A DNA stretch of 64,000 bases from positions 23,438,001 to 23,502,000 of the forward strand of contig CM119371.1 in assembly GCA_051294905.1 (NCBI GenBank). The letters run 5' to 3'. The position numbers were made by a program, and so were the translations under genes. Of the stretch, positions 15,594-41,538 are shown in pieces. Below the pieces are notes generated by a model. That model made no database searches. It was not told the origin of the DNA and saw only the letters and a program-made list of their open reading frames with translations. The stretch comes from Botryllus schlosseri (Eukaryota). How positions within the stretch are numbered: the first letter of the stretch is position 1; each line of letters begins with the position of its first letter.

Positions 15594-15704
15594 GTATGTG
15601 AAATTCGATCGAATCAAGTTTTCGAAGTTAAATTTATATTTTATCCTCCAAAATTGTTTTTTTTATGTTATATTGCATTTAATAAGCTTATATTTTGTCA
15701 AAAG

Positions 15705-19955: not shown

Positions 19956-20123
19956 GTTGACCAAATGGCGATTGAAGATAAATCAATGACGTATGAAAAA
20001 GTTGAAGCTTATTTAGGTATTTTCCGGCGCTGCAAATTCACGAGTCTGGGTCTGGCTAATTGTGATCTCACACACAAAGATGTTGACATGATTTTACAAT
20101 TTTGTCGCGGTCACGGTATTAAG
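19956..20123 (+). CDS. NLR gene: 168-nt phase-0 LRR exon (..FTSLGLANCDLTHKDV..)
   Basis: TTTTAG acceptor, GTAAGG donor, ribonuclease-inhibitor-like LxLxNCxL motif. Confidence 0.85.
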
Positions 20124-21547
20124 GTAAGGACTCTGCTTATATTGAACTTTTATATGCTATAATATAGTGCTCATTTTGGAACAGAGAAAATTCATGAATA
20201 TATTAGATACATTTGTAAATCCGAAAGCTGAAATATCCGACGTGTTAAAATTGTCAAAATCGTTCAACTGATTAATTAATGTGGCGTATGGTATATTTTG
20301 AAATAATATAACTGCTGTCAGGTGGCGGGATTCTAATTATTCAGCCGTAATCTATCGTAAAGATATTTTTCTGGAAATAAACTGCGCGGCAGGACATCGT
20401 TTCGTAAAAATAAATTTGAGGCAAGGCCACAACAACATTAAAACGGCGATACATCTTAGCAGGTAATTGTGAAATTTAATTTATATGAACAGGTTTTCTC
20501 ACTCGAGGACTTGCTAACATCTGCTTTATTCGTCATCATATTTTTAAAAACCAAACTATCTAACAACATATTCAATTAGTTTTAGATTAAAATTGTTGTA
20601 TGAATATATTGTAACCCCAGGTTGCAACGAGTAGTGTGAGCGGGCTATGGCATATCATTGCTAACAAACACACTAAAAAGCAGCAGTCGTCCCGTAACTT
20701 CTATTCATTATGAAACCATTCCATATCAAGAAACACAATCACAAAAAAAAAATTGCTAATATTATACTAAATAACACAAATTGTAATTTTCACGTGCTAG
20801 CTTGACCGTATAGCAGATTAACACAATTTAAAGCTGCTACACTGGAACTTGGCCGTAGCAAATTTTGAAAAAAGCGTGAGCTACTTGGATCTTATAAATA
20901 CTCTGACATTATTCGAGTGCAACAAATATTCCGGAAACACCTGACAGTAGACATAAACAATCACCGTTTACTGTAACATAGCACTTTTTGTGCACTGGTA
21001 ACCAGTAAACTTCTACGAAAGGCTTAATGCACGCTATGCTGATCGTGCTAAATGTGTTTGTGACTTCGGTATTGGTGATCCAGAATCGAAAATGAGTTTT
21101 TTATAGCCAACAGGCCATTAAATTAGCAACGCATCGCTTACAGTCCAAACAGTGAACTGCATGGTAACCATTATCGTGGTGTTCCGCCTTGAAAGGCTAC
21201 AATGTATATGCCGTGCCATTGGTTTGGGAAGTGTGCCTGCTCCCCACCAGAAACCCCTTAATTTTTACAACTGGCGAGTTATCCACCGGCTAAGAACCAT
21301 TGATCTAGAGCTAATTAGCAATTTTAATTATCCTTTTTGGATTCATCGTAAAAAAATTGATAAAATTGATTCCGATACACTGCCGAACCAATATATGCAT
21401 CGCCTAAATATTTCCTTATATATTTCGTTCGAAGATTTTTATCGTATCCGTCAATTATTTCAGTCGACTCGAAATTAATGTCAGAAATTGCAGCGAGCAA
21501 TTATGTGTTCTCGTATATCACTATTGGGAAGTTTCATTATCATTCAG

Positions 21548-21715
21548 CTATCCGATCTGGTGATCTTCGATGGTACAATGATATCAGATGTCTACTGTGA
21601 CGTCGCGGATATTATCAGTATAACAGGATGTTCAAACGTAGATTTCAGAAACTGCGATTTGACGAAACAAAAGTTGGAACGTTTCACGTCAGCGTGCAAG
21701 AAAAAACAAATTTCT
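21548..21715 (+). CDS. NLR gene: 168-nt LRR exon A1
   Basis: CATTCAG/GTAAGT sites; LSDLVIFDGTM...VDFRNCDLT. Confidence 0.85.
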
Positions 21716-23599
21716 GTAAGTATGAAAATTTGCTGAAAGAATTACACAAATCATGACATGAAAATGCAGCTCAAATTTAGCAGTTGCATTCCTTTTGTCT
21801 GGGTATCAGTCTCCATTGTGCTACTATCTTCTGAAAGTTCTACTGTACCTGATAAATTTATTCCCTGTGTCAATTCAACTTGAGGATACTATACTAATCT
21901 CCATTTCCTATTTCCGAGATAATGTAACTCGATGAATGCAATGTAAATCCCCTGACGACTCTGTGTAAAGCACTGGGACTGTACATTGGGATGAACTTGC
22001 CAATTAGTTCGAACTACTTGGTGTCTCATATGAACGGCCGTATTCGATTCTATCATACGACGAACCCTCGGATTGGGCACATTGCACACTTTTTCTTATA
22101 AATAGGTGTTTACCGACCGTGTGTCGCAACGAGACTCACAGATTACAAGTAGGCTAAAACCTGAAGTGGAATGGAAGATATGTCGACACGAAGTCCCATC
22201 AATTGGATAATCTATTCATCCCAAAACAGTAATTTCCACATTATTTTTCTGCTATAATTTCGACAGATCATTATGGATTACCATTCTTAGATTCACGTGT
22301 CTAGTAACTGACCTAATTACAAATCGACGAATCTTATGATATCAGATTGCCTTGTTCAAGCACTGCGGCTGTCAATCATATGCTGAAATTTTGTCACTTC
22401 GTTTTGTCGACAAAATGACTGTCCACAACGTCAACAAAATGAATAAGTGAACGACTCTTGGACTCTTGTAATGCTTTTGATTACTACAACCAAATCCCGC
22501 AGGTCAGGAACAGTTATAAAATGTTGTTGACCTTGTTGCAAGGCACCGATAATAATTGCGATGATAGTTAGGGCAGACACGTATATCCGACGAGTAACTG
22601 AAAATGACAAAAGTATCGAGTGGCATGGAAATAAGTTCTGAATACGCCGCAACCACCAATAAGTATTGTACACTAAATTGTTAGATTTCCCAGATTAAAG
22701 TCCGATCCCGCAATTTCACTGAAAATGCATATGACGAATAATTGCGGGGGTTGGAAGAATACATGAACAAATTCTCAAACATGATGTTTTTAGTAGTCGT
22801 CATTTATCAGACATTTCTGACATCGGAATGGACAGATAAAATCGACATTATACGTTACTCTTGCTGTCGACGCAAGTAGCCCTAAACAGAAAAAAAAATC
22901 ATCTAGTGTTCTCAAACTTGGCATTTACTTTACTTTGATTTTGATATCTATCTTTAAGGTACTTTATTGTACACGAAACTTACAGATATGAATATAGTTT
23001 TCGCCAATTTGTTGACATATTTGATAGTGCAATTTCAATATCATCGAAAATAGAATTATTTCTTGCTGTCGACGGTGAATATCCCCGCACTAAAAAGCAT
23101 CTATTATTTTAAAGCATAATAGTTACAATACTGTTATCTTGGTATCAATGCGCATTCGACTCACGTAGAACAAACCCAAAAGAATCAAGTCCGATACTGG
23201 ATAATCCAGTATCGAAGTGGAATTGCCATATCCACCTACCACCATAGCACATTACAAAGAATACTAAGTGCATTTGTATCGAATGCGTAAAGAATTGTTT
23301 CAGAGCAGATCTTCACGGATGTACCGTCTCAAATTTGCTATAGTCTAGTAAGGAATGCATTCCCACCTCAAGGAAATGGTTCTATACGGAGCATTGAGTG
23401 GCTAATACACACTCGATAATCTTTCAACCATAGAAAATCACCGACTAAATATTTTTCGCTATATTTTCGTTCGATGATTTGCATGGACTCTCTCGAGTAT
23501 TTTAGGTGACTTCGCGAAATGAATGTCGGACATTCCAGCTAGCAATTATGTCATGGTCTCGAATAATCACTACTGACAAGTTGCATCATTATCATTCAG

Positions 23600-23767
23600 C
23601 TTGCCAAGCTGTTGATATGGGATGGTACGATGACGTCAGATATCTATGGTCAAGTTGCGGATATTATCCGCATCACGGGATGTTCGACGATATTATTTAG
23701 AGAATGCGATTTGAACAAACATAAGTTGCAAAGTTTCATCGGAACCGGCAAGAATGATAAAATTTCT
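23600..23767 (+). CDS. NLR gene: 168-nt LRR exon A2 (not in the ORF track)
   Basis: CATTCAG/GTAAGT sites; LAKLLIWDGTM...ILFRECDLN; paralog of A1 with a similar upstream intron. Confidence 0.85.
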
Positions 23768-23910: not shown

Positions 23911-24078
23911 CTCTCGCAGCTTCACATAAGAGATGCCGAAATGCCTGCTGAATGTTACCGCGAAATCGCAACTACACTCAAGTACATCTGTTGCAAACAG
24001 ATATTGTTCGAAAACTGTGAATTGACGAGTCTGAAGCTTTTTGAATTCTACACTGGATGTAAAGACAACGGTCTGTCT
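23911..24078 (+). CDS. NLR gene: 168-nt LRR exon B1
   Basis: TTCCTAG/GTACGT sites; LSQLHIRDAEM...ILFENCELT. Confidence 0.85.
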
Positions 24079-25338
24079 GTACGTTTAGTTAATATACAGA
24101 AAACGTGCATTGCTTGTAACACAGGTGCACGATAAGTTTTCGTTCGGTTTCTTATTTCTACCCGCATATTACGCAATAATACCAATCCCACAACATAATG
24201 CGTTTGATGAGTGATATTGAAAATACTTATTCCGGGGATTGGTAGATCAAAGTGACTTCTATGCTGGAAAAGTAGTCAGAAAACCTTCCAAATGATGAGC
24301 ACACAACACAAATTGACAAAATGAATAACTGAACAACTCGTGGACTATTGCAATGCTTTTGATTGCTGCAAGCAGATCACGCATGTGAGAAACAGTTGGA
24401 AAATGCCCTTTATTGTAACGAACTGATAAGAATTGCGATGATAGTTGGGGGTAGCCCAGTAAATAGGACTGGTAAGTGAAAATTAAATTAGTATCAAGAG
24501 CTATGCAAATCCGTTCTGGATACGTGCCCAACGATAATATAGCTTGCACACTAAATCGTTTGATTTCGTGGTTTAAAATGCGACACAATCATAATTTCAT
24601 TGAATAAGTTAATGACGACAAGAACTGTGGGGTGTAAGAAGAATAAAGCAGCAAAATCGTAGAAATTATGCTTATTTATTTCTCGACCTTTTTGACACTG
24701 GAAAGTACAGATAATCAGAATTGGAATCATTTCGCGCTCTCTACGTCAGTATCCCTGCGAAGAAACGCTTCTACTGTTCTGAAACTTGACTCAGATATCA
24801 GTTTTCATTGTGTGACAGCGTCTTGAAATTCTCCACTATGACTTACCGTTTGAACAGTGTGGTGTTTCATACATTTTCCGCACAATTGATTCCAAGGAAG
24901 TTCTACGAATAACATCATAAGCTGCTGCCGAGATTCGCATAAATACGGGACTGCAGTGTTTTTATTTCATTACGAGCTCGGAAGATGTTGATGAAAATAC
25001 AATTTACTAGAGATGTTGCAACCATTCATTTACGTTTGTGTCCGGCTTGGGAACCGTGAGCTACATGTCCACAGACTAATATTTGAGGTTTTCCCCTGTG
25101 AATATTTTGTATGAAGTACCAGTATTTTCCAATAATCTTAGCAATATTCGTAAACATTCTTGAGATAGTAACTGCACCGCGATGACAGCAAAGGAAGTTT
25201 AACCCAAGTCTAAGAGGTAAATTGAGACGTAATTAATTTTTAACAATTTCGATAAAGTTGCTTGACATATCACACCATAGTAATTCCTAATAATTAAATA
25301 GCTTTCAATACAACATCCATTGTAGGAAAATATTTATC

Positions 25339-25375
25339 AACTCGAAGACTTTTCGGGCCCCTCTTTTCAAGAGTT
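25339..25375 (-). ncRNA. Minimal type I hammerhead ribozyme motif, U3-A8 core variant
   Basis: AACTC-TTGAAAA-GAGGGGCCC-GAAA-AGTCTT-C-GAGTT on the minus strand, in the Penelope 3' UTR. Confidence 0.55.
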
Positions 25376-25832
25376 AACGGCACACTGAAGGGATTTAAAC
25401 AGAATGAAAAGCAAAACCAGAAAGGCGAAGTATGACGCAACAATCAGAAATTACACATCATGAAGTCCGCAAAGTAACAATGGCAACAATAACAAACTTT
25501 GAAGTGTACGGTACTATAGTAACATAGCAATTTGAAACTAAACAATAATAAACACGAATTAGAGCGCACTAACGGGAAATTTGTAAGTTATGCAGAAAAT
25601 CTTTTTGTCTACATAAAATAGGCTTGGTCAATTGGATGATTGTTGATTCTAAGGCTTTCAAATGAACAAGGATCTGCTTCGCGCAATGACAGTAAACATT
25701 TGGTCATTATAGTTTTGAGCACAAGAAGGGTTCTCACTTAAATGTTGGCCAATTGACGAAGCGTATGCTTGGTAATCGTCATAACAGTCGGTTTTTGCGG
25801 CTAATTTGCATTGTCGTGCGAACTCCGTGCGG

Positions 25833-27226
25833 CAGGGGTTCTCAACTCGCGGACCGCGGGCCGCATGCGTCCCACAGACGTTTGTTTATGTTGCGGCCCG
25901 CGACATCTTTCATTATGATCGCAATTATTAATGACAAGGTTAATATTAATTTAGCTACTTAGCTCTCTTATCGCATCGTCTCTGTTTCGCTTGATTACTC
26001 ATTTAGACGTGGTCTGATTTCATGATATATGCTCGAGTTAAGGTTGTTATTGTTTTGAATCTGTATTCGGCTGGACTCTAGTTCAAGTTAATCCCACTAC
26101 GTAGTAATTTTTTAAAGAGTGTTTCACTCGCCGCAAATGGTTTGAACGGTAACAAGAACAAGGAATGGGAAATTAAACGGCGAAAACTGGGTTTGTAACT
26201 CTGCGTGGAACAATCAATTTGATTTTGCAGATATAAATGGAAAACCGATGTGTCATATTTGTCGAAGAGCAGTTGTTGTAACGAAGCGTAGAAGCTTAAA
26301 ATGATACGACACTTTCGTCTGGAGTTATACATGTCGCCTGGTATTAGAAATTAACGTTGCCAGCTAGGTGTCAAGCCCAGCAATCCATATTTCAAGGCAT
26401 TGTTGAAATTGCCGATTACGTTACAGACGAATCGTTCAAAATTGCTGGGAATATCGCTAAGCTCAAGAATACTACTAGAGAATGTGTGATTTCAATAGAA
26501 CTATGCGAGTATTTGCTATTTCCGGAACTTAACAGCAAGAAAAACATCACCTGGCATACTTCGAAGCTACAGTTGTCTGATTCAACCGTGAATAAAAGAG
26601 TAACAGCAATATCAGTCGATCTTTTATCGCATTTTCTGAAACACGTTGCCGCGTAGACTACCGCAGCCTGGCAATGGACGAATTCACCGTCTACACATAC
26701 ATTACATAGCTGATTATCTGGGTGCATTTTATCAGAGTGGACAATCTGGACATATTTGTCGAGGAAATGCTGGCTGGGCAAACGAGGGAGGGGGATCAGC
26801 GAAAAACATCAACTTGACAAAGCTGACGTCTGTAACTAATGGTGCAGGGCCCCCGCTATGGAAATAAAGGAGAAGGGTTGATTGGTTTGCTCAGAAATGG
26901 CCCCGAACGCCAGACTTCTTCTGATATCACTGAGAGCTCAATGTGATAATGGCCTCTGTAACGAAAAAGTTACCGTAACTTTATACTTACTTGCTCGCTC
27001 ACGCATGCTCGCTTACGCATTGAACCAGAGAGTTCGGTTCTCTGGTGGTAGAGTTTAAAGGCTGGTGCATATACCGGCCCATATAGGCCTACGACTGCTG
27101 AATAGGCCTCACAGTAGCTGAAATTTAACAGTAGCCCACAAATACATGGTAATAATGTTCTGCGGCCCGCCGCCTCTTTTGCTGTTAAAATATGGCCCGT
27201 TATACAAGGGAAATTGAGAACCCCTG
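25833..27226 (+). mobile_element. hAT-Charlie derivative (same family as 5816-7560)
   Basis: TIR CAGGGGTTCTCAA; TSD CCGTGCGG/CCGTACGG; remnant KLQLSDSTVNKRVTAISVDL. Confidence 0.85.
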
Positions 27227-27688
27227 CCGTACGGTCATTTGCGCAAGTTTTTGAGCGAATCAATTTCGGAATATGTTGCGTTATCCGTTAAAACAATCGT
27301 TGTGATGTACGTCCCACATACCTACTATCACAAATTGATTCGCTCAAAAACTTGCGTAAATGACCGTACGGAGTTCGCACGACAATGCAAATTAGCCGCA
27401 AAATCCGACTGTTATGACGATTACCAAGCATACGCTTCGGCAATTGGCCAACATTTAAGTGAGAACCCTTCTTGTGCTCAAAACTATAATGACCAAATGT
27501 TTACTGTCATTGCGCGAGGCAGATCTTGTTTCATTTGAAAGCCTTAGAATCAACAATTCAACAATCATCCAATTGACCAAGCCCATTTTATGTAGACAAA
27601 AATACTTTCTGTATAACTTACAAATTTCCCATTAGTGCGTTCTAATTCGTGTTTGTTATTGTTTAGTTTCAAATTGCTATGTTACTAT

Positions 27689-30600
27689 TGGGCTCGAAAG
27701 TCACGTGACTTTTCATCATAGCAACCACCGTCTGGGGCCAAGCGCCTTTCTGGTGTATCTTCTCTGCGTCAGTAATCCATTTGTACGTCGCAATTTCTGC
27801 TACTACTGTGTTTGTGTTACGAAAGTGGCTGAAACAGGATTGTATATATTTTCGTGCAGATAGATGTCAATGTATAGTATTCAATTAATATGATTGAGTA
27901 GGGCAGTTTAGGGTAGCATACGTCAAACAAGTAATTCCATGGTTTAGTATTTTCAACTGGGCCTACTAACTATTCATCGTTTGGCTGCAGCATTATTATG
28001 CTTCAAGTGTATACTTATCGACACGGAGACAGTGATCAGTCAACATCGGAGATTAGTAATATTGTAACATTACCGTACCGTGTTAAATTTGATTTCAGAT
28101 GGATTTGGTTAAGCTATTTTTACGATTTGCGAGTTCTTCAAAATTATCCGAATTTGGTCAGAAGAAGTCCAAATGATTTAGACAACGACCATCCAATATC
28201 AGCAATGTATGGTAGAGATGGCAGAGAATTGGGACATATTCAGTTCAGCCATGAGTGGACAGTTTATGATGTAGAGGTTGGAAACTGCAAAATTACCTGA
28301 AAGATTGAGGAAGCGTTAGAAATGAGTTCGAATCCCACTTGACTCAAGTGGGTCAGAGTATTTTCTCGACTGCCCATTGCTTACCAAACTACATGAGCAT
28401 CGTCATGTAATCAAGCCCAGATGGCTAAGTAAAGCCGATGAGGCTCGAAAATCGGCATCACTGACGAGGACGTATGGAAGCAAGCAAGAGAAAAAAGATG
28501 GTGGACAAATGACAGGAATTCATCAGAAAAAGCTTATCAAAAAGCAAAGAGACCCGTGAACTTTAACGCATTCATGTTGTGGTACGAACAGAAGACGACC
28601 CAAAATTGTGTGTGTGGTGCAATAAAACAAACGAACTGAAAAGCTTGTAAAGAGATTTTTAATTTCTGGCTAAATACTTGAGAAATGCTGCATGCTAGTA
28701 TAAGAATGAGTTTCTTACAGAAGTATTCAGTAACGTAGTATTTCGACCTTTTCAGAGTACTAGGCCTATGTAATATTGCATACTTGCTAGAGCAGCGGTT
28801 CTCAACCGGGTAACCGGGTGACATGTTTGCAGCACTGTTGTGATGTGTGTATTGATAGATATCAAGTGTCCCTATTCTACCAAATCAAGATCATTAATAG
28901 ACTTGAGCGTTTAGGAGAAAATCTTCATTTTGAAATGAGTTGGTGATATTATAGTACTTGCCCAGAATCACAATAAGTACTTTGACCAGTGCGGGGCAGC
29001 TTACGCATTGTATACTTAAAACTTATGCCATTTATTCGATTTGGACCCCAGCAGAAGCGATGGTTCAGATGATACCGTAAGATTCTGAATAGAAGGACTA
29101 CCTAATTCTGATATAATAATATTTCCACAACAATACTTTCTTGAACTTGCATACTCTAGCTTGATTTTACAAAATTCTAAGAGAGCTCACGAAATAAATA
29201 ACTTGCCAATAAATTTGACAAATTCACAACTTGAGAATGTATTTCCTTTGTACCGAGAATGAAACAGATAGAATGTAGGTATTGGTCACAGATTAGGTAT
29301 TCCTGATTTATGTTGCCGACTTGCCATAAACGGATGCATTGACTCCTACAATGCTACTGTGGTGGTAGTCTTAAACTGACGACAAACTTGAACACACAGA
29401 GTTGGCTTGAAAATGGGCAGGCATAAGCAACACAATTGAGAGGACTGTGTTGGTAGCAGCAGCAGTTATATCGAAATTCATGCGAACGAGAATAACAGCA
29501 AGCAGTGTAACTGTAAGTAATCCATGGCAACCTGTAGTTATTGCGTTGCTGCATCGCGGCGACGTCAGTATCTTCCATTGACAAGCAAAGATCCTGAACG
29601 GCGTCTGTGTAATTTAGGGTGCTCTGGCTCGTGCACTGATACAGGTGTTGTTGGGTTCGTATGGTTACGAGGCTGGTCCCACATAAATGACCTACTGGTG
29701 GCGTTGATGCACCGTATGTCGACAACAATGTCAGTTCCTTCCCAGCGTTTTGGGTGGATTTCTACCAAGTTCAGGAAGTACGTGTAGTGCCGACTTTTAA
29801 GGCCGGTAGCGTCTTGAAGTGTTCGCTCCACCTCCCTACGGTGACGTCATTCCATAGACAGTTGAGCTGCAGTATCTCACGGTTCAGGGGGTAAATAGCG
29901 CGCGTGTGCTTCTTGTTCTTGCGATAAAGGATATGGTATCTTCTGGAGAGCAGTTTGTGGCAGAGTTACCAATTGCATCATACAAGATGCCCCGGATAAG
30001 GTTTACGTATAGCATACAGTGCAACTTCACTAGCACAGCAATTAGGTACAGATTAGTGAGGCTAACATCAATGTTTGCATTGATTTGTTAAACATCTTAA
30101 TGTATCTATAAAGAGAAAAAATGATTATGAATTACCCTATGATTTTTGTTCAAGAAATTTGTGTAGATTTTGTATAGAGCAATGCAAAAGCTACTGAAGG
30201 TGGAAAATTTTAAATTTGGCTCAACTAGCCAAATTTGCTATGTATTTTTTTGGAGAACTTGACAATTCCATGGCGTAGCCAGTAACATTTAATAAAACTA
30301 TTTCATTTTTTCAATAAATTCAATTTTTTTTTAAATCTGATAGCTTCATTTCTGCATGTTGGAATTGAGCCAAATCTAGTGTGCAACGTTTTTCAAGCCA
30401 ACCTAACAATTTTGCTCATGAGCCAGTGAAATTTGGAAAAAAAGTTATTTTTCAATAAGATCGATGTAGAAACTTGACCAAAATTTAGAAAAAAAACATT
30501 GGCAACAGTGCCAGTATTAAATTTTACGAAGTTGTGTCATGAGTAACAGCAAGACCTGGTCTCCCATTAAAAGAATATTTACATTTCATTCAGAATGATA

Positions 30601-31372
30601 CCAAATTGTAAATCGCTGCATCATCACAAAAACCAAGTCAAAAGTACGATACTCTTGCCCTTGTCCGGCAATAGCAGTCTTCTCAGCACTATCCTTGAAA
30701 CAATCAATTACTTGCTTCTGATTGGCATCGTTAAACTTAAATTTGGCTGACCGAAATTCTTGATTATATTTTTCGATAATGGCGCACATATCTTAATAGG
30801 TAACCAATGCCTGCAGTTGATGCATCTATTCTTAGGCCACTTTCACTATATAAACACAATTAAAAAAATTTAATAATTGTGGCTTATCTTAAATCATATG
30901 CTATTGAAGCTGACTCGATTACGCTGTCTTGGGGTACACAAGATACCGGTATGACATTTGATACCACCACACAAACAATTCAACATAGTTCAAATGTAAA
31001 TTATATTTATCATTCCCACTAGCTTTATTAATTTCAGTTACTTTCCTGTCGTTTTCTGGCAATTCAGAAGTCGATGGAAAGACTACGCCGAATTGTTTTC
31101 TCATCCATTATAACAAACTGGCACGTTATACCCTGGCATTTTGCGCGGCTGCAAAACAACATAAACCTACCTAGTTAGTATCTAAAAGTCCTGAAACTAG
31201 TTTAAAAGCCAACGAAGATAACATAAAACCCAGAACTGTACTTCAAACAACCTCACTAAGACAGAAAATACTAATTGAAAACCGACAAATATCGCAAATT
31301 ACCACGGGCCACGGCTATCTAGGATAGTTGTTTGGCCCCAGCGAACCACAAATCACGTGACTTTCGAGCCCA
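27689..31372. mobile_element. TIR DNA transposon with 2-bp AT TSD (ISL2EU-like), internally decayed
   Basis: TIR TGGGCTCGAAAGTCACGTGA at both ends; empty site GTTACTATAGTACC visible in the other palindrome arm; THAP-like remnant on the minus strand near 31139. Confidence 0.7.
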
Positions 31373-31500
31373 ATAGTACCATACACTTCAAAGTTTGTTA
31401 TTGTTGCCATTGTTACATTGCGGACTTCATAGTATGTAATTTCTGATCGTTGCGTCAAACTTCGCCTTTCTGGTTTTGCTTTTCATTCTGTTTAAATCCC

Positions 31501-31835
31501 GACAAGATAGCGTAATGGTTAAGCGTCCGGCTTCTTGATCGGTAGGTCGTGGGTTCGATTCCCGACCGGGTCAGACCAAAGACCTGATTAGTAACACCGG
31601 TATCCATGGCTTCCCTGCTTGGCGCTCATGCATTACTGGGATAGCATGGAGGGGTGGTGCATGACTTAGAAAGCCGTAAAGGCTATATCTGCACTTACTT
31701 GTCCAGCGGCATATGCTCATCATGCACTCATGGTATGCATATGCGCAGATCGTGTGTATGTGTATCATGAGTCGGTGTATATGCCACAAAAACATCAAGG
31801 ACAAAAATAAACTACGTCCTTTCCTTTCCTTTCCT
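31501..31835 (+). mobile_element. tRNA-derived SINE
   Basis: A box TAGCGTAATGG, B box GGTTCGATTCC, unique body, (TTTCC)n tail; absent from the opposite palindrome arm. Confidence 0.8.
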
Positions 31836-32990
31836 GCAGTGTGCCGTTAACCCGAAAAGTCTTCGAGTTGAATAAATATTTTACTGCAATGGATGTTGTA
31901 TTGAAAGCTATCTTCAAGTTCTGTACCACGAACCAACTGTTTAAATAATTAAATAACTCACTTCCGGTACTTCTATACGTATTGAACTATGCCTATATAT
32001 TTCTCTACAATTAAAAGATAAACTTTGTGTCATAACGAAGAACCAGTGTATTTGGGTATGTTTTGCAAACTAATTATTCGACTTTCTGGCTAAGCTATGG
32101 TAACATACTCTAAGCATTCATTCAATGCTTGCCTTAAATTCTTGGCACTTGCGGCGCAAAGTCACTAGGGTTCCATTATAATTTCGCGTACGAGTTGTTG
32201 GTATTACTGTGTCATGTGATAAGACACTCCGTTCGATCAATAACTGTTCCTACGCTAAATTTTAACGACTCCACCACCACAGCAGCTCCACCGATAACGC
32301 TGATAACGCGGGTGACAGATGATATATAATCTCAACAGTAATATATGCAACTACCATTACTTTTGTCAAATATACAACATTTTCCTTTGAAGTAATTTCC
32401 GGATCGCGCGGCTAAGAAATCGGTGGTGACTCATCTGAAAAATAGTGTTGTGATATGCGCGTATGCTGGCACTTTTTGTACGCTCATCGAATCGACTTTG
32501 ATCTGTGATATTGCTACAGCAGTAGGTCATTTTGCTGCAATCGAGTTCGCCTTGTAACCTCGTTTTCAATTATATATATATTTAAATACATCTGTTTATG
32601 GCGCGATAGAACAGGGTGATGGGGTGCATGCGTTCATCACAACAGCTTTTTGGGATCCCTAAATGCAGAAATATTTTTAAATAACCGTGTGTACATTAGA
32701 GAATCAGAATTTCGTTAAGCACAGGAATTTCCCTGCTATTTCCAGCTACGAATTAGGCAGATAGAGGCGCAAATATACTAAGACACGTGATTGACAATTT
32801 CCTATTCGACTGAATTCCTGAATCTGATAAGTTAATCGTTAATGTAAATCGTAATCGCATTGACATCGCTACGTGTATTGGTAATTCCTGTTTCGAAACC
32901 TTTCTTAAACGAAATGGTAAATAAACCATAATCCACTTTAGAGTATAGTTGCAAAGCAATCGGTAATGGAAAAGACTGCATATTTTGTAG

Positions 32991-33158
32991 CTCTCAACTC
33001 TGTTTATAATCGATGCCCAAATGCCTGCTGAAAGTTTTCGTGAAATCGCAATCACACTCAAGACCACTTGCTGCAAAGAGATATATTTCGAAAACTGCGA
33101 ATTGACGAGTCGGAAGCTTTTTGAATTCTACACTGGATGTAAAGACAACGATCTATCT
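32991..33158 (+). CDS. NLR gene: 168-nt LRR exon B2
   Basis: TTTTGTAG/GTAAGT sites; LSTLFIIDAQM...IYFENCELT. Confidence 0.85.
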
Positions 33159-33581
33159 GTAAGTTTATTTAGTGTACAAAAAACGCATAGTGCTTGTATC
33201 ATGAGTGCCCGCTAATTTTTCGTTAGGTTTCTACTTCCTACCCGCAGATCACGCAATAATACTAATCCCAGAATAAATTGTTTTTGACGAGGGATATTGA
33301 CAGTAGCCTACTTATTCCGGGGATTGGCAGATCTAAGTGACTTCTGTGCTGGAAAAGCAGTCACAAATCCATCAAAATAATGAGCACACACACAAAATTG
33401 ACAGAATGAATTACTGAGCGACTGGTGGACTCTAGTAATGCTTTTAATCACTGCAACCAAAGCCCGCATGTGGGGAACAGTTAATAAATGCAATTGACTT
33501 CATTGCAGCGCACTGATAAGAATTGCGATGATAGTTAGGGGTAGCACAGTAAATGAGACAAGTCAGTGAAAATGAAATTAG

Positions 33582-35808
33582 TAGGGGTGGTGTGAACCTA
33601 TAAAAGGTTCAGGTTCGTGTGAACGCGAACCTTTTTGAAAGGTTCTGTGTGAACGCGAACGCGAACCTCATAACGTAACGTGATGGTATATTGCTAATTC
33701 CAACCCTACATTTCAGTGAAGTAGTAGCCTATATTAATGTACACAATACCTAGTGACGACTCTGGCCTAATGTATCAACTGGGGCAATAAAATGATATAA
33801 TAATTCTATAAAATCAATATTTTCCGTCGCTTTGCCAACAATTACGATGACGATATGCAAGAGAATGTTAGCTTACGTTTTAACGGTCTAGGCCTGTCTG
33901 GGTATTTCTACTGTTGTGTTCTTGATCTTGTTTGAACAATAACTCAATGCGACGAGGTTGCAATAAGAAATAAGTATATTATCAGCAGTATAACTTTACG
34001 GCAGCGACACGATCCAGAGTGCAGTTAAATGAAAGACCCAGAGAACAGAACACAAAGGGTATAAATACAAGCGCGACACACGAGGAAATAATGATTGGCG
34101 GTAATTACTAGTCATATAGAAATTAGGAGTTGAACAACACTGAACGTAAATGCACGAACATAACAGTCCTCCCCTGTAAGTTAAAGGGTTGCCTGCATTT
34201 ACGTAGGTTTATAGAAATCGGTGGGTTTCCTATTCCTAAGAGGATATCGTCTGCCCGACGTACGGGCAGGACTAGCTGCAGGACCTTGTGCCCGGTTCCT
34301 AACCAATGGTTGCTCAGCTTGTGACTGTTGAGGCTGAGCAATTCCCTGCGTGGCTGTATTATTGCCAGCTGAAATCAAGCGTGGTTGGAGTTGGTTCTTG
34401 TTCCTTCTCCAATACCCATGATCTGTTTTTATAATGTACACAACACGCCCCCGTATTTTCGTCACCACGTCAGCAACCCACTTTGGTCCGCGTCGGTAAC
34501 TGCGAGCGTAAACAGAGGAACCAATCTCGAAATGAGTGCGGATTGTCTAGGCGTAACGGGTTTCGATTTATCGAAGGGCAAGCACAAACTTAACAAATTA
34601 AGCGGCTGCCGACCATGTAAAATCTCAGCAGGCGTTTTCCAGTCTATGCCCGGGTGCGGTGCACATCGGTAAGTAGCGAGAAGTGTTTGGAGCACGAAGT
34701 TGAGATCTTTCCACCCGTCGCAATTTTTTATCAGTCCAGCTTTCAAAGCCTGGACGAATCGCTCTGCTTCCCCGTTCGAGGCAGAGTGAAAAGACGGTGA
34801 TACGATATGGCTGATCGCCAAATTAGAACAAAACGTATCGAATTCATCCGATGTGAATTGCGGCCCGCCATCCATGACAAATGTTATGGGCAAGCCTTCG
34901 ATAGAGAAGACTTCCCTCAAAGCGTTGACCACACACAAGGTTGTGGTAGAACCGACATTCATTACTTTAACGAAAGGATATTTCGAATGCGCATCGACGA
35001 TGACAAGAAACATCTTATTTTTTATTGGACCTGCGAAATCCAAGTGAATCCGTTCAAAGCTTTCAGACGCTTTAGGCCATTCGCGATACTGACGATCAGG
35101 CGCTTTCATTACCTTACGGCAAGCGTCGAGATTTTCAATGTCGCGATTAATGGAAGGCCATGCGATGTAACGTCGAGCCATCTGCTTTATTTTCACGATA
35201 CCCCAATATCCTTCCTGCAACAATGATAAGACTCGCGAGCGAAGTGACCGCGGAATTACTACGCGCTGAAAACCATCAATATTGAGCATGACTATGTCTT
35301 CGTGCAGAGAAAGCGAATGTTTGCGAGTCGAAAACTAAGAAAAATCATCAATGTGCGTATTTGGATTCCAATTACCATGAGTGACAGATAATTTTACTAG
35401 TTTCATGGTTTTGTTGAATAAGCAACATTCGCTGACGACAGTCTATTTTGCACTTGATATTCTGTGATATACGATCAAGCTCACAGTAAAGAGTAACTAC
35501 CTATTCACTAACGGAAAGCTGAATATTTTGAGCAATTGTAACAAAGCAAGTAATATTTTGAGATTGGCAAGGTGCATGCTCGTTTAGTATAGATTCTTGT
35601 ATGCTGCCAGCGCCGAATACGTAGAATGGCCCGGAGTTGAAATGCAATAAATTTCAACCAAAGATGTTTTAATGTAGTGAAATCTGTGATATATGAAAAT
35701 GTTTGATGGGGTAGAACCTACCAGGGTGCGATTGTGAATGTGAACCTCTAAATTTTTAACGTTCACACACAGAACGCGAACGTGGACCTCACGTTCACTC
35801 AATCCCTA
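33582..35808. mobile_element. hAT-type element with TAGGG termini hosting the Gypsy remnant; related end at about 2540-2762
   Basis: TAGGGGTGGTGTGAAC...GTTCACTCAATCCCTA; TSD GAAATTAG/GAAATTAA; interrupts the duplicated intron sequence. Confidence 0.7.
33912..35420 (-). mobile_element. Truncated Ty3/Gypsy LTR retrotransposon: integrase remnant, PPT and 3' LTR (33912-34165)
   Basis: ORF 34462-35289 with RIHLDFAGP, GPQFTS, SNGEAERFV and a degenerate HHCC region; PPT AGGGGAGGAC next to a TG...CA LTR. Confidence 0.9.
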
Positions 35809-36144
35809 GAAATTAATATTAATATTAATATCAAGTGATATGCAAATCCGTTCTGAAAATTCCACCACTGACAATACAGCTTGTAGACTACGTTGTTGGA
35901 TTTCAAAGATTATAATGCTAAACAATCATAATTTCATTGAAGAAGTTGATAAGGGCACGAACTGTGTGGTGTGAGAAGAATAAATGAGCAATTTCGTAGA
36001 CATGACGCTTATTACTTGTCATCATTTTCTCGACATTTTTGACACTGGAATGGACATATAATCAATGTTGGAATCATTTTGTGCTATCTAAGTAGGTAGC
36101 TCTGCACAAAAAAACATCTACTGTTCTCAAACTTGATTCAGATA

Positions 36145-38349
36145 GCGCGATTCTTATCATTCTTTGACCTAGTTCGATTTTGCCGATATCTCGCATCAAT
36201 TGACGTGATCAAAGGGGATATTAATTTATCTAAAAACGAACGAAATTTGAATCGGCTAGTCATTGACCGCTTCGGAAGTGTCGCTTGTCCCGATGAGAAG
36301 AATATCATCAACTTATCGGACTACGCACTGTCCTCGACCGAAAAGTTTGCTCTATCGCATGGGTTAAATTTCTGTATTCCACCAATTAATGTCAAGAGTG
36401 AGGAGGTTTTCGCCGAATTTGAGATTCTATTAGCTCAATTGAAGCACCGTGAAGCAAAATCAATCGATGAAGTGCCAGCTCTCAAAGCAAGACTTACGGA
36501 TTTGGCACATTCGTATTGTGGATGTCCAGTTGACAAAGCGGATTTCTTGATGACAAAGGAATGCTTCCGTGCCATAAAATCTCTGCGAAGCAACCCCGAT
36601 ATTCACATAACGAAAGCAGATAAAGGTGCCGGCGTGGTAATTTTAAACAAGAAAGATTACATTGCAAAGATGATGACTATTCTCGAGTATAAATCCAAAT
36701 TCGTTGTACTTGGCCCGGTCTCGGAATACGACAATACTGCAAAGTCTGAAAGACGACTACAACGACGCCTTCGAATCTTGAAAAACGATGACGTAATATC
36801 CACTGAAGAATATGACTACATGAGGCCTGTTGGCTCCCAAAGACCGCGTATGTATGGATTACCAAAGACGCATAAAAACGATTTGCCACTCAGACCGATA
36901 CTCAGCATGACTTGGTCAATGCAACAGAAGTTGGCGAAGTGGTTGATCAACATACTGGAACCTGTTCGCGAACTTTACGGGTCGCATTGCGTACGCAATT
37001 CTTTTACCTTCGCTGATGAGATGCGTCGCTCACAGCTATCCGCGCGCGATAATTTCCTAGGCTCATTCGACATAAAGAGCCTTTTCACCAACGTACCACT
37101 AAATGAGACGTTGAATATTTGCGCTGATGCTCTATATAACGGTAAGCTAATACCCCCTCCTTTCTCGAGAGCTACCTTCATTGAATTGATGAGAAACGCT
37201 GTGTGTTCTGTTGAATTTAGTTTCAACAATATCATGTTCCGACAATCTGATGGTGTAGCAATGGGATCACCATTGGGTCCTATTCTAGCCAATATATTTG
37301 TAGGATTTCATGAAGATAAGCTCTTCTCTTCTTGTATTAGACCGCCCTTATCATACCATCGCTATGTCGATGACACGTTCGTGATATTCGATAATGAATC
37401 TGACTGTGATAGTTTCCTGGAAAATTTAAACAAACTACATCCAGCATTGCAATTCACGTCGAAAAAAGAAATTAACAGTCGCCTGGCATTCCTTCACGTT
37501 CTTGTGGAGAAACGGGATGGCAAATTCCTTACCTCCGTTTATAGGAAGCCCACATTTTCGGGTCATTACCTTCGATGGAGCTCTTTCAGCCCAAAAAGTC
37601 GTAAAATCAATTTAATCGGCACCTTGGTTCACCGGGCGTTGATGATTTGTTCCGAGGTCAAATTGAATAATGAACTTGACTATATCCGTAAAATTTTCAT
37701 TGACAACGGATACCCAGAGTATGTTATTAAGCGGACAATAAGTAAAAAGTTCAGTCATTGGAATGATACCATACCAGAAGAAACCCCCGAAGTAATTTCT
37801 CGTGAAAATAGGGATGTGTACATTCATCTTCCTTGGATTGGCCCGGTTTCTTATCGATTTGAGAAACAGATAACTTCAGCAGTCTACCGCTATTATCCAG
37901 CGGTGAAAACCAATGTTGTTTTTAACACGATACCAATGTTTCCTGCAACCCGAAGGGACGTTCTCCCGGCTATAAAACAAAGCAACGTAATTTATGAATT
38001 CAAGTGCCACTGCGATTGTCGGTACGTAGGGAGAACTTCCAAACGGTTGCAGGACCGTATCAAAGAACACATTCCACCGTCTGTCAAATCTTATATCTCA
38101 AATTCGCAGCTTAACAATCCGCTTGTTCTTGAACATAACCAGGCCATGGGTCAAAAATCTTCTATAGGCAAACATTTACTAGAAAATCATACGTGTGCTG
38201 CTAACTATCACGAGGACATGTTCTCTATATTGGCTAAGGGTCGCAATTTATTTCATTTGTCTGTTCTTGAGTCCACCATCATCACTATGAGCAAACCTAG
38301 TCTATGCCAACAGAAAGAATTTGTGTATCATTTGAAAATCGCGCATTAA
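36145..38349 (+). CDS. Penelope reverse transcriptase + GIY-YIG endonuclease (uninterrupted frame, native start missing)
   Basis: YGLPKTHK, PLRPILS, SFDIKSLFTNVP, GVAMGSPLGPILANIF, RYVDDTF; NVIYEFKCHCDCRYVGRT..LQDRIKEH. Confidence 0.9.
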   Translation, partial: ARFLSFFDLVRFCRYLASIDVIKGDINLSKNERNLNRLVIDRFGSVACPDEKNIINLSDYALSSTEKFALSHGLNFCIPPINVKSEEVFAEFEILLAQLKHREAKSIDEVPALKARLTDLAHSYCGCPVDKADFLMTKECFRAIKSLRSNPDIHITKADKGAGVVILNKKDYIAKMMTILEYKSKFVVLGPVSEYDNTAKSERRLQRRLRILKNDDVISTEEYDYMRPVGSQRPRMYGLPKTHKNDLPLRPILSMTWSMQQKLAKWLINILEPVRELYGSHCVRNSFTFADEMRRSQLSARDNFLGSFDIKSLFTNVPLNETLNICADALYNGKLIPPPFSRATFIELMRNAVCSVEFSFNNIMFRQSDGVAMGSPLGPILANIFVGFHEDKLFSSCIRPPLSYHRYVDDTFVIFDNESDCDSFLENLNKLHPALQFTSKKEINSRLAFLHVLVEKRDGKFLTSVYRKPTFSGHYLRWSSFSPKSRKINLIGTLVHRALMICSEVKLNNELDYIRKIFIDNGYPEYVIKRTISKKFSHWNDTIPEETPEVISRENRDVYIHLPWIGPVSYRFEKQITSAVYRYYPAVKTNVVFNTIPMFPATRRDVLPAIKQSNVIYEFKCHCDCRYVGRTSKRLQDRIKEHIPPSVKSYISNSQLNNPLVLEHNQAMGQKSSIGKHLLENHTCAANYHEDMFSILAKGRNLFHLSVLESTIITMSKPSLCQQKEFVYHLKIAH

Positions 38350-38483
38350 CTTGTTTTGCTTCGCTATCTCCATGCCAACGCTTCAGTTCTCTCGTGTTCC
38401 TAACTTTGTACATTTTCTGTGTGACGTCATAATTAGCGATATATATTGTTGCTGAACATAGTTATTCGAATTCTCGCATTATT

Positions 38484-38531
38484 GCTGACGATATTCCCCT
38501 GACGAGGGTCAGCCGAAAAGCTTCGGGAATA
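38484..38531 (+). ncRNA. Minimal type I hammerhead ribozyme with canonical core
   Basis: TATTCCC-CTGACGA-GGGTCAGCC-GAAA-AGCTT-C-GGGAATA; 7-bp stem I, palindromic AAGCTT stem III; predicted cleavage after C38524. Confidence 0.8.
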
Positions 38532-38849
38532 AAATGAATATTTTATTCAAATGTGTCAAATGTTATTGTGAAACAGCCAACTGAAATTATTGACTATTAG
38601 GTATTGTTTGAATCGTGTGTTGTTTCAAACATTCCTCGCACAGCTGAACCTGAGGACGTTTTGCGAATAGCACCATAAGATAAATTACGGTTAACATACG
38701 TCCTCTTCTAAGAAAAACAAGCCCAAAACAAGCAAATTAAAAAATCAAACAAGCCGAAAAACAAGCAACCCGCGACTCCTGAAAATAAACCGCGAATCGC
38801 GAAAACGACAAGCCCAAATTCGCGGGAAAACCGCGAGGTTGGCAACACT

Positions 38850-39300
38850 GGTTCCAAAATACCGATAAGCCACTTCTCGAGCTTGTGCTGCGCCGATCGA
38901 ATCGTAGAAAGAATCGGCCATGGCTTTGAACTCTGCCATCGGCAAGCATTTGGCTGAGAATGCAACTTACGCTAAAAACTATCGCCATGAAAGATCTTCT
39001 ATATTAGGTAGAGGCCGCACTAATTTCCATCTGTCTGCACTAGAATCGACTTATATTAAAATCCACCGACCGCACTTGTGTCAGCAGAAGGAATATTTAG
39101 TGAATCTAAAAATTGGCCACTAGCTGCGCTCGCGGTTTGCCTGTAATTCATGTTGTTTGTTTCTATGACGTCATAATTGGTTGTATGCAATGTAGCTAGA
39201 TCCATGTTTTGGAAATTCTCCATTTGCTGACGATTGCCCTTGAAAAGTGTCAGCTCGAAAAGCTTCGGGTTTTAATATGTTTTAGTATGAATATATTATT
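38850..39300 (+). mobile_element. Second Penelope 3' fragment (different family) preceded by an inverted RT fragment
   Basis: SAIGKHLAENATYAKNY...LCQQKEY on plus; PILSTIRSAQHKLEKWLIGILEPV on minus (about 38850-38915). Confidence 0.8.
39226..39270 (+). ncRNA. Minimal hammerhead motif, U3-A8 core variant
   Basis: GCCC-TTGAAAA-GTGTCAGCTC-GAAA-AGCTT-C-GGGT, positionally homologous to 38484-38531. Confidence 0.55.
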
Positions 39301-39316
39301 AAAATGTATATATACA

Positions 39317-40924
39317 TTAGGGTTGTCCATAATTTGGAAAATCTCAAAATTTATGCGTATCCATGTCTCATTCTATAGATTATAGTTAAAAAACGTCAAT
39401 GAACCTGCAATAAGCTCACGGGAAAGTCGTTAATATTTGTCTAAATGCGTTTGAAAGTAGATGCCGTAGAGTGGGCGTGTCAGCGACCATAGAACGGCAA
39501 GCAGACTAGTAATCACGCAATCACGGCGTTTGATTAGCTAATCTGCTACGCTTCAATGATCACAACATTGGCGGCTTGTTGATCAGCCGTTCAAGGAGTC
39601 GGCTAACGGCGGTGATTATGTAAGCGCATTATAGGTTGGTCCGCCAATAATGATTTAGGATTAATTCAGAACATGTTAATTAACGAAACACATGATGAAC
39701 AAAGAACAGCAGCTTCACAATATCTATGACTGGATGGCGGATTGTGAAGGTAACCGTTGTAGCCCCTACGCCTTGATTTCATTGGTGGAAAGAACAAAAA
39801 CAAGCGGAAAAATATTGCAAAGGCGCTTATGCAAGTGGCAAACGAATTTCTAGTCTCAGAGGGGATGTACCATCATTGAATACAAATATAAAGCTTGACA
39901 TTGACACTACTTTGTCTGATCTTATTAGGCTGTTGTCGTGGTATATAATTGAAGTCTTGAATGCTGTAAGGGCTGGATGAATCGGTCATTTATGCTTGGC
40001 ACTTGTCAGATTATTACAGCATAATGAATCATACCCGCAAGTGTTGTCAAAGTTCTCACTGATGCCGCGAAAAGAGGTCTAAAGATAAGCACAGGCTATG
40101 CTGGTAGTACCAGCAAAAAGACAGTTTGCTTGCATTGCTTAGCATGACATTAATGAATCTTAGATCATTACCGGCTGCATCACTACTTATGCTTGAATCA
40201 AACCAGACATGGACGCAAAAAAGGATGTATTGAAGCGGTGTGGTAGTTACCCTCTTCTTCTGAAATCCAATGTAAGCTACCTGGTCGGCCCACATATCTT
40301 CTGAGCATAAAGGATTGTGTCCAGAATCCATATTACATTGTATGCCGCACCAGTTCGGCGATGTCTAATATGCCTTACCTGCACCCAGAAAACAGGACCA
40401 CTTGGTGTAATCTCAAACATATCAGATATGTAGGCTATTTCTGGTATCTGTACTTACTTCTATAAGGTCACAATCATTCGCTGTTTCACCTCTGTCATGC
40501 CTGCAATAGGCTATTGTTGCACTAAAGCTATCGGTACATAGTTTAACACTAAAACATTCAATGACCAGATGTCTCATTTTATTATTAAATCACCAACGTA
40601 CAATGCGCTTACAGAATCATTGCCGTTAGCGAACTGCTCGAACTAGTATAAGCGCATAATCAGCAAGCCGCTGTGGTCGTGACGATTCAAGCATTGCTGA
40701 TTAACCAATCAAGAGACGTGATTTCGTTATTACTAGTTTCTCGCCGTTCTATGGTCGCTAACACGCCCACTCCGCTGCAGCTACTTTCAAACGTATTTAG
40801 ACAAATGTTAACGACTTCCCCGTGAGCTTATTGCTGGTTCATTGATGTTTTTTATCAATAATCTACAGAATGAGGCATGGATACGCATCTTTTTTGAGAT
40901 TTTCCAAATTATGGACAGCCCTAA
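39317..40924. mobile_element. Non-autonomous DNA transposon with about 320-bp imperfect TIRs (hATm-like)
   Basis: TTAGGGTTGTCCATAATTTGG...CCAAATTATGGACAGCCCTAA flanked by TATACA; remnants VWFDSSISSDAAGNDLRFI (minus) and TTLSDLI..SWYII (plus). Confidence 0.7.
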
Positions 40925-41370
40925 TATACATATTTAAATACATCTGTTTATGGCGTGAGAGAACAGGTGAAGGGGTGCATGCGTTCGTAACATCAGCTTT
41001 TAGGGATCGCGAAATACAAAAATATTGAAGAAACGTCGCAGAGTTTCATTAAATACCCTAATTTCACTGCTATTTCCAGCTACGAATTAGACAGCTCCAG
41101 GCGCAAATAAAGTAAGATAATGGTCACTTGATTGAATATTATCCAATTTGACCCAATTTTTTTCGAAAGTTGCGAGTGCATTTTTGTGATCAAATTGCTC
41201 AGCCTAATAATTAAATCATAAACATAAACCGTGAAGGCTGTCACATTTCTACGTATATTGGTGATTCATGTTTCGCGACCTTTATACAATGAGGAAGTAT
41301 AGAAACATTAATCTTCTCTACAGAGTTGTTGTAAAGTAATCTGTAATTGTGAAGAACGCTTATTTTGAAG

Positions 41371-41538
41371 CTCTCAAATCTGATCATTACCGATGACAAA
41401 ATGTCTGCTGAAAGTTTTCGTGAAATCGCAATCACACTCAAGACCACATGTTGCAAAGAGATACGTTTCAAAAACTGCGAATTGACGGCTTGGAAGCTCT
41501 CGCAATTCATCAATGGATGTAAAGACAACCATCTATCT
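41371..41538 (+). CDS. NLR gene: 168-nt LRR exon B3 (last exon I could identify; terminal exon not found)
   Basis: TTTTGAAG/GTAAGT sites; LSNLIITDDKM...IRFKNCELT. Confidence 0.8.

Follow-up and report, generated by a model that had tools for sequence, protein, structure and literature searches.

The 64,000-nucleotide stretch of the Botryllus schlosseri genome analysed here (the window) carries a series of leucine-rich repeat (LRR) exons of a single length, which raises the question of how the array grew and whether the differences between its copies were shaped by selection. We hold with reasonable confidence that it is the LRR part of a likely ascidian NLR, grown by germ-line unequal crossing-over between two-repeat exons, with a face that was then probably diversified by selection.

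Gene model and predicted fold

The six phase-0 LRR exons described in an earlier note were verified in start, length, splice borders and frame (Table 1): each is exactly 168 nt, is bordered by AG on its 5' side and GT on its 3' side, and is open in phase 0. Searches of both strands with an HMM, nhmmer and tblastn found no further or decayed copies in the window. Two more frame-preserving exons (exons 4 and 5) lie upstream. The six exons continue a gene model of 11 exons and 998 codons, a NACHT-LRR frame free of stops, frameshifts and lost splice sites. The NACHT exon encodes a Walker A motif (GEAGAGKS) and a WH region, ends in FSHQTMQ, and matched Pfam NACHT (PF05729, E 3.8e-13, 50 bits against a cut-off of 26.7), with a weak NOD2_WH match. 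In the model alignment, VRLRCDD of exon 4 aligned with VHLKCDE of Styela; exon 5, without a significant homolog match of its own, is the weakest exon of the model.

Table 1. Positions of the exons, introns and intronic elements in the window.
Feature	Position	Strand	Remarks
NACHT exon	12128..13288	+	acceptor AG 12126-7; first ATG 12152; phase 0 donor
Exon 2 (HD2 start)	14474..14636	+	phase 0-1; open frame; tblastn Styela P0003/P0006/P0012, E 2e-3 to 5e-5
Exon 3	15274..15593	+	phase 1-0; in model; tblastn Styela P0003/P0005/P0006, E about 1e-4
Exon 4, degenerate first repeats	15687..15854	+	168 nt; phase 0-0; weak donor
Exon 5, degenerate repeat	16420..16593	+	174 nt; phase 0-0; splice signals and open frame
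LRR-pair exon 1, divergent	19956..20123	+	repeat HMM E 0.0015
LRR-pair exon A1	21548..21715	+	family A
Intron A1-A2 segment	22434..22920	+	68% to intron downstream of B1
LRR-pair exon A2	23600..23767	+	family A
LRR-pair exon B1	23911..24078	+	family B
Intron B1-B2	24079..32990	+	homologous to intron B2-B3 from donor to acceptor (five collinear blocks, 70-79% identity)
LRR-pair exon B2, B3/B1 chimera	32991..33158	+	crossover inferred at exon nt 109-117, about 33099-33107 in the window
Intron B2-B3	33159..41370	+	duplicated copy; retroelements inserted later
Integrase remnant	34465-35334	minus	within intron B2-B3
RT ORF	36100-38346		within intron B2-B3
LRR-pair exon B3, last found	41371..41538	+	ends at GT donor

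The model aligned collinearly with Styela clava XP_039248824 (over 2-997, E 7e-107) and with XP_077976001. The joining of its exons was derived from the open frame and this collinearity, not from RNA, and on these grounds the six exons likely belong to a NACHT-LRR (NLR) gene. An exhaustive protein search gave Styela clava proteins as the best named relatives of the NACHT exon (~33% identity); word-index protein searches returned no relative for the NACHT exon among longer proteins, or for the exon alignment among longer and near-length ones. The Styela proteins XP_039248824 (2508 aa), XP_077976001 (1650 aa) and XP_077966284 (1118 aa) share the NACHT subfamily (~33%) and a 56-57-aa unit present in 1 to 31 copies among paralogs (HMM domains of the 56-aa unit: 31 in P0005, 11 in P0003 and 1, weak, in P0006). 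They differ in being uncharacterized database models, two of them with N-terminal Death domains, and were compared as proteins alone. According to the accessible text of PMC11508797, CARD is lacking in ascidian NLRs.

Searches of the 22 kb between 41538 and the end of the window at 64000 did not reveal a terminal (capping) exon; exon-like ORFs at 51177, 51400 and 53829 were rejected as part of the gene, being neither LRR-like nor matched in Pfam. The Styela Death-domain proteins gave no tblastn match upstream of the NACHT exon, and no PYD was found, although a head exon may exist because an AG precedes the NACHT exon. Since neither a terminal nor an N-terminal effector exon was found, this may be an incomplete or a dying gene.

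Each 168-nt exon encodes two ribonuclease-inhibitor-type repeats; these were first taken as 2 x 28 aa, but in the predicted structure, whose strands lie at 3-7 and 30-34, they measure 27+29 aa. An AlphaFold2 model of exon 32991 alone gave E3-7 H13-26 E30-34 H40-52 (beta-alpha-beta-alpha) with pLDDT 89.6, and a model of five Styela units reached pLDDT 96. The best matches of the Styela model in the VIA search were RanGAP, ribonuclease inhibitor, NLRP3, NLRP9 and NOD2 (Z 15.9-17.8, rmsd 5-7 A), with Z 17.0 to ribonuclease inhibitor and 16.7 to NLRP3. In the Foldseek ranking by E-value, TIM barrels (TMq about 0.3, rmsd 12 A) stood above ribonuclease inhibitor and NLRPs (TMq 0.57-0.65); in light of the VIA result, the barrels were discarded. 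Pfam LRR models matched none of the six exons and only one of the five homologs; ESM Atlas matches for exon 21548 were pentapeptide-like, all under 0.9, and were discarded. The LRR identity proposed from the letters alone is supported by the beta-alpha pattern of the exon model and the ribonuclease-inhibitor-like fold of the Styela model, and the structure confirmed 3, 5, 7, 30, 32 and 34 as outward strand sites.

Duplicated introns and the origin of exon 32991

The two exon families proposed earlier hold by nucleotide identity, which is 72% within family A (21548/23600), 75-86% within family B (23911/32991/41371) and 45-55% between them. The intron homologies described with them were also present, namely 22434-22920 / 24316-24788, 24079-24493 / 33159-33583, 24474-24797 / 35810-36144 and 32572-32783 / 40924-41117. 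Growth by duplication of exons together with their introns is thus backed by homologous, collinear intron blocks, and the A1-A2 intron segment is the trace of a block duplication that is older. A candidate decayed B exon after A1 was rejected, its best score of 33 equalling the null maximum of 33. The intron copies have diverged by 16-31%, with indels, indicating that they are old; "expanding", the word first used for the array, therefore describes its historical growth. The introns also carry a heavy retroelement load.

Exon 32991 (B2) groups with family B but is not a plain copy of it. In codons 1-36 and the upstream intron it matches B3 (41371), with identities of 0.86-0.91 (nt 1-111) and 0.69-0.71, respectively; in codons 40-56 and the downstream intron it matches B1 (23911), at 0.95 (nt 112-168) and 0.76-0.82. 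A max-chi permutation test supported the mosaic (p = 0.004 with sites as units, 0.04 with codons), and the likelihood was higher under a two-tree model (lnL -756.9) than under any single tree (best lnL -763.7). B1 and B3 are identical over the 9 nt in which the switch falls. The introns of B1 and B3 were only 0.50-0.59 identical (random mean 0.50, maximum 0.60), so the exon was the sole homology available for a crossover. This mosaic points to unequal crossing-over inside the exon as the likely origin of B2, and the chimeric origin of exon 32991 is new here.

In the mechanism that we propose, germ-line unequal crossing-over between neighbouring two-repeat exons would enlarge the array, each misaligned crossover between two exons adding or removing exactly one repeat pair. 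Because the exons are all of one length and phase 0-0, such a crossover would preserve both frame and fold.

Variation and probable selection on the predicted concave face

In the first strand of the five A and B copies, positions 3, 5 and 7 were all different and positions 1, 4, 6 and 8 invariant, just as noted before. The second strand, said to behave similarly, does vary, but less so, with 4, 4 and 3 states at 30, 32 and 34. Outside the strands, positions 41 and 54 likewise differ in all five copies, and variation was strong at 47 and 48 as well. The six outward sites accumulated 20 parsimony changes, or 3.3 per site, compared with 2.0 at non-core sites (permutation p = 0.002) and 1.5 over all 56 (p = 0.0002). 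Comparisons of sister copies likewise back an excess of amino-acid change at these residues: in the youngest segment (B2 and B3), change was seen at 5/6 outward sites and 3/31 others (p = 0.0007), in a further comparison at 6/6 and 15/50 (p = 0.002), and in the A pair at 5/6 and 19/50 (p = 0.046). In Styela P0003, the six homologous sites were also the more variable ones among its six units (p = 0.025).

Codon models were fitted to five sequences, exon 19956 being left out because its dS was saturated. The six-site set, which had been chosen by eye before the structure and in which multi-base codon changes can inflate w, gave w = 2.9 against a background of 0.35 (p = 0.007 against w = 1). The B copies alone gave w = 4.5 (p = 0.002) at these sites, and w stayed at 2.2-3.2 (p 0.008-0.053) when the chimera was removed. 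The A pair alone was not above w = 1 (p = 0.33), a 10-site xxLxLxx set gave w = 1.18 (p = 0.61), the site-free comparison of M2a with M1a gave p = 0.067, and whole-exon dN/dS was 0.3-0.9. The positive selection anticipated in the earlier note was thus recovered in the six-site set and the B copies but not in the A pair, the 10-site set or the M2a/M1a comparison. Because the six-site w is 2.9 but the 10-site value is 1.2 and the site-free p is 0.067, positive selection on the outward strand residues is probable, not proven.

Relaxed constraint, under which the same duplications took place but exposed strand residues drift neutrally (w about 1) without specific binding, is unlikely. It accommodates the 10-site, M2a/M1a, A-pair and whole-exon results, but it agrees poorly with a six-site w of 2.2-5.0 in every model variant that included the B copies, with the change at five of six outward sites between B2 and B3 when only 3 of the 37 codons compared are silent-only, and with the smaller amount of change at other exposed (non-core) sites (p = 0.002). 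If duplication was instead followed by selection, as we prefer, the hydrophobic core would have stayed under purifying selection (w about 0.35) and the outward strand residues would have changed faster than silent sites.

Transcripts, related systems and significance

In contigs of the RNA-like runs X5 and X6, coverage of exon bins was 4-65, compared with 0-2.2 in four neighbouring unique-intron bins, a hint of expression, although these runs are not recorded as RNA and paralogs can contribute at 85% likeness. The raw RNA run X21, about 6% of which was read, had a depth of 0-0.5 on exon bins. No exon-exon joint was present among the 15 of 685 joints listed, the mapping being swamped by intronic repeats. 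A run from another individual, likely DNA, contained the intron-exon junctions of both 32991 and 41371. Run X10 reached a depth of 488 at 23998, which hints at many copies like B in its genome; this value is no copy number and was set aside.

Probably, all exons are spliced in series. A combinatorial array, Dscam-like or Ectocarpus-ROCO-like, in which cassettes are skipped or mutually exclusive so that one gene yields many receptors, is improbable. The exons all share symmetric phases (0-0) and a single length, as such an array would need, but this does not discriminate because germ-line duplication needs symmetry too. Skipping of an LRR exon in human NLRP3 (PMC6642158) and alternative splicing of Ectocarpus ROCO LRR exons (PMC11378527) are described in the accessible parts of those papers, and a weak hint comes from the lower X5/X6 contig depth of B3 (9-24) than of B1 (80-111), contig depth being a poor measure. 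Against it, the five A and B exons have strong consensus splice sites, Styela RefSeq models string 11-31 units in series, and the listed P0003 isoforms differ by one residue or end early. Skipping of the NLRP3 kind may occur, and is not needed to explain anything observed. More speculative still is a large tunicate NLR repertoire of recombining, spliceable two-repeat cassettes, in which intra-exon crossovers would alter repeat number and hybridise alleles, selection would rewrite the face and skipping would multiply receptors; if true, VLR/Dscam diversification would have an intracellular counterpart in invertebrate chordates, with possible use in pathogen sensing or allorecognition. A decaying gene, its distal exons remnants of a truncated NLR whose protein is no longer made, would fit the missing terminal exon, the retroelement-loaded introns and the near-zero X21 depth, but is very unlikely given 11 intact exons, a background w of 0.35 beside flanking introns that diverged by 16-31% with indels, and exon-restricted X5/X6 coverage.

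Several known systems resemble the array of duplicated exons that we favour. Ectocarpus ROCO genes, as far as the accessible text of PMC3341825 and Teng et al. 2024 (PMC11378527) goes, likewise carry a single repeat module on each symmetric exon and have duplicated exons and a proposed immune role; a repeat module in a symmetric exon duplicated within the gene was found here too. Diversifying selection is described there on alternating solvent-exposed concave-face residues (sites 15, 17, 19 and 20), where it is probable here. Their exons, however, are phase-2 units of 72 nt with a single LRR, next to a ROC-COR or NB-ARC core, and alternative splicing is reported for them (PMC11378527), whereas ours follow an animal NACHT, hold two repeats in 168 nt and are in phase 0. 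Vertebrate NLRP/NLRC proteins and ribonuclease inhibitor share frame-preserving exons of two ribonuclease-inhibitor-type repeats, after NACHT in the former; in the available text of Hoss et al. 2019 (PMC6642158), NLRP exons measure 171 nt (28+29 aa) and their border falls within the beta-sheet, whereas the present 168-nt exons (27+29) have it two residues ahead of the strand. The NLRP pairing of 171-nt exons with an N-terminal PYD was not seen at this locus, where the copies are paralogous duplicates with a diversified face. In Podospora NWD genes (het-D/het-E, NACHT-WD40), the accessible text of PMC1805685 describes repeat number altered by unequal crossing-over, together with positive selection at alternating positions on either side of a conserved residue, comparable to the likely growth and probable selection here. 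Concerted evolution has homogenised its WD40 repeats, however, to as much as 100% identity, whereas the present LRR units have long introns and 14-55% nucleotide divergence. Zebrafish NLR-B30.2 genes also form a large NLR family, with single-exon LRR domains and 0-6 or over 20 LRRs; according to the text available for PMC4852459, their LRRs are not particularly variable and positive selection lies in B30.2, whereas here the LRR face varies.

Brown algae, fungi, plants and vertebrates already provide examples of the exon-modular, concave-face-diversifying design. No description of tunicate LRR-exon arrays of this kind was found in the literature searched, whose coverage mostly excluded subscription journals. 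Adaptive receptors are, to our knowledge, lacking in tunicates, the sister group of vertebrates. By analogy with known NLRs, the gene may encode an intracellular immune sensor, with repeat number and concave surface setting its ligand or partner specificity. The locus would record both the birth of a cassette, by intra-exon crossover, and its later change (5/6 face residues as against 3/31 others), and an NLR family with repeats missed by Pfam and a diversified predicted concave face is a candidate for specific innate recognition in tunicates.

The repeat-exon array and its host gene

The six-exon LRR feature is real. All six exon starts proposed in the earlier note were correct; each exon was preceded by AG, followed by GT and open in phase 0, and a seventh LRR-pair copy was sought on either strand of the window with profiles and at the nucleotide level, and none was found. 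The division into families A and B was borne out by nucleotide identities, which were 72% for the two A copies, 75-86% among the three B copies and 45-55% across families, and the intron homologies listed with it were genuine. Whole-exon dN/dS between copies, where measurable, was 0.3-0.9.

Features in and around the repeat-exon array (single figures are exon or ORF starts)
Feature	Coordinates	Description
NACHT exon		1,161 nt, upstream of repeat exons; Pfam NACHT E 3.8e-13
Further exons of gene model	14474-14636, 15274-15593, 15687-15854, 16420-16593	Between NACHT exon and repeat exons
First repeat exon	19956	168 nt, divergent
A1, A2	21548, 23600	168 nt each
B1, B2, B3	23911, 32991, 41371	168 nt each
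Nested elements	25298-31911	Inverted ends 93-95% identical: 25298-25357/31851-31911; 25390-25517/31373-31500; 25516-25832/27364-27688
Repeat	31499-31827	In intron B1-B2
Integrase remnant	34465-35334 (-)	LTR-type; adjoins reverse-transcriptase ORF
Reverse-transcriptase ORF	36100-38346 (+)	Intact, 749 codons, GIY-YIG-like tail, RVT_1 E 3e-10; in intron B2-B3
Exon-like ORFs	51177-54080 (+)	At 51177, 51400, 51728, 53829; good splice sites, not LRR-like
Inverted repeat	56654-59518/61136-64000	2,865 nt, 99.65% identity; second arm passes window end

The gene model, comprising the NACHT exon, four further exons and the six repeat exons (11 in total), had 998 codons, no stops and canonical splice ends. 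An exhaustive search returned 125 protein relatives, and the seven with names among ten checked were all Styela clava "uncharacterized proteins", which makes an ascidian host probable. The model matched XP_039248824 across residues 2-997 (E 7e-107), and XP_077976001 aligned as well. The 56-57-aa unit of these exons was present in approximately 31 copies in one of these two Styela clava proteins (P0005), 11 in the other (P0003) and one, weak, in a third paralog (P0006). In P0005, two unit types alternate in long near-identical runs, indicating that two-exon block duplication occurs there too. No head exon was identified upstream of the NACHT exon and no terminal cap exon of the Styela type was found in 41539-64000; probably the gene end lies past the window or the gene is truncated.

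Among neighbouring features, the reverse-transcriptase ORF is presumably Penelope-like. None of three scanned ORFs of 51177-54080 matched Pfam, and these ORFs probably belong to another gene, or to one derived from a DNA transposon. The inverted repeat is either an assembly artefact, a long-TIR element or an inverted duplication of very recent origin. RNA depth from run X21 reached about 1,000 per strand in the bin of the 31499-31827 repeat, with reads carrying an oligo and GGG ahead of 31499-31503 and poly(A) past 31826-7, which suggests that a SINE-like element gives rise to an abundant transcript some 330 nt long. At the nested elements, contigs of run X10 jumped about 6.5 kb between 25337 and 31857, as would be seen if the site were empty or held a shorter member of the family.

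Diversification of the predicted concave face

The AlphaFold2 model of exon 32991 (pLDDT 89.6) contained strands at residues 3-7 and 30-34 and helices at 13-26 and 40-52, a layout that gives repeats of 27 and 29 residues instead of the two of 28 previously assumed. The predicted structure of a five-unit stretch from a Styela homolog (pLDDT 96) matched RanGAP, ribonuclease inhibitor, NLRP3, NLRP9 and NOD2 (Z 15.9-17.8, rmsd 5-7 Å). Since hydrophobic residues occupy positions 4, 6, 31 and 33 almost without variation, residues 3, 5, 7, 30, 32 and 34 would point outward on the concave sheet, judging from this alternation and known LRR architecture.

Face residues changed faster than the rest, as the earlier note had observed. 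In the youngest sister segment, codons 1-37 of B2 and B3, five of six outward sites differed, against three of the remaining 31 (Fisher p=0.0007), and three codons had silent changes only. The corresponding values were 6/6 and 15/50 for B1 and B3 (p=0.002) and 5/6 and 19/50 for A1 and A2 (p=0.046); outward sites were enriched in parsimony changes even relative to non-core sites (p=0.002). When the codon model was given a different tree to either side of the B2 breakpoint, with exon 19956 excluded as saturated, dN/dS was 2.9 at the six outward sites (p=0.007 against 1) and 0.35 elsewhere. The positive selection suggested earlier was supported for these six sites, but not for a broader 10-site set (1.18, p=0.61) or by M2a against M1a (p=0.067; posterior >0.5 at sites 32, 7, 47, 3, 5, 48 and 41). 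Removing the chimera B2 left the six-site value at 2.2-3.2 (p 0.008-0.053); B copies alone gave 4.5-5.0 (p about 0.002, star tree), and the A pair alone 1.8-2.0, which was not significant. Positive selection on the face is probable, judged from five short sequences and a site set first spotted by eye in the earlier note.

A chimeric exon and growth of the array

Exon B2 is a mosaic of B3 and B1. Its upstream intron and nt 1-111 resembled B3 (identity 0.69-0.91), whereas nt 112-168 and the downstream intron resembled B1 (0.76-0.95); B1 and B3 introns showed no similarity to each other beyond the random range. The switch was significant when either sites (p=0.004) or codons (p=0.04) were permuted, and it fell in a 9-nt stretch identical in B1 and B3 (exon nt 109-117). 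Introns B1-B2 and B2-B3 shared five collinear homologous blocks from donor through acceptor, with separate later insertions in each. A single unequal crossover between B1 and B3, with the exon as homology, would yield both the chimera and the duplicated collinear introns and would explain all of these data. A1 had A-type sequence upstream and a B1-type intron downstream, probably reflecting an older event in which an A+B block was duplicated and one B copy then lost; no remnant of that copy was detectable near A1. Flanking introns of the copies had diverged by 16-31%, indicating that these events are old.

Four runs were aligned to 21545-41544 at 85% likeness. X10, which behaves as DNA from another individual, yielded contigs running from intron into exon at B2 and likewise at B3 (86-89% identity), so that an assembly artefact is an unlikely source of the duplication. 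Part of the NACHT region was matched by 18 of 24 runs, none of the 18 being on record as RNA. Contigs of runs X5 and X6 had depths of 4-65 in exon-bearing bins and 0-2.2 in four adjoining unique-intron bins, which fits RNA of this gene or close paralogs; depth in X21, a raw RNA run, was 0-0.5. No exon-exon joint was present among the 15 listed of 685; exon skipping may occur. Eight exonic variants were among the 40 listed of 2,399; taken singly, seven altered an amino acid, and in three cases the residue faced outward (A2 32, A2 34, B1 30), which is a hint only, the rows having been picked by support and possibly being of paralog origin. We favour, with reasonable confidence, germ-line crossover plus selection as the explanation of the array, and regard combinatorial splicing of the exons, raised earlier as a possibility, as improbable.

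Comparison with known systems

In vertebrate NLRs, RI-type repeats are as a rule carried on exon modules, and NLRP3 shows skipping (PMC6642158); LRR exon number varies in zebrafish NLRs (PMC4852459). Brown algal ROCO genes contain arrays with one repeat per exon, with alternating concave-face residues under selection and alternative splicing described later (PMC3341825, PMC11378527), and Podospora NWD repeats are shaped by unequal crossover and positive selection (PMC1805685). Passages from PMC11508797 and PMC9505182 added little on tunicate NLRs, and the literature searches, at the level of listings for all other papers, turned up no description of exon arrays in the present tunicate family. 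The locus holds a likely tunicate NLR gene whose two-repeat exons have been duplicated and whose predicted concave face is diversifying; systems of this kind are already known.
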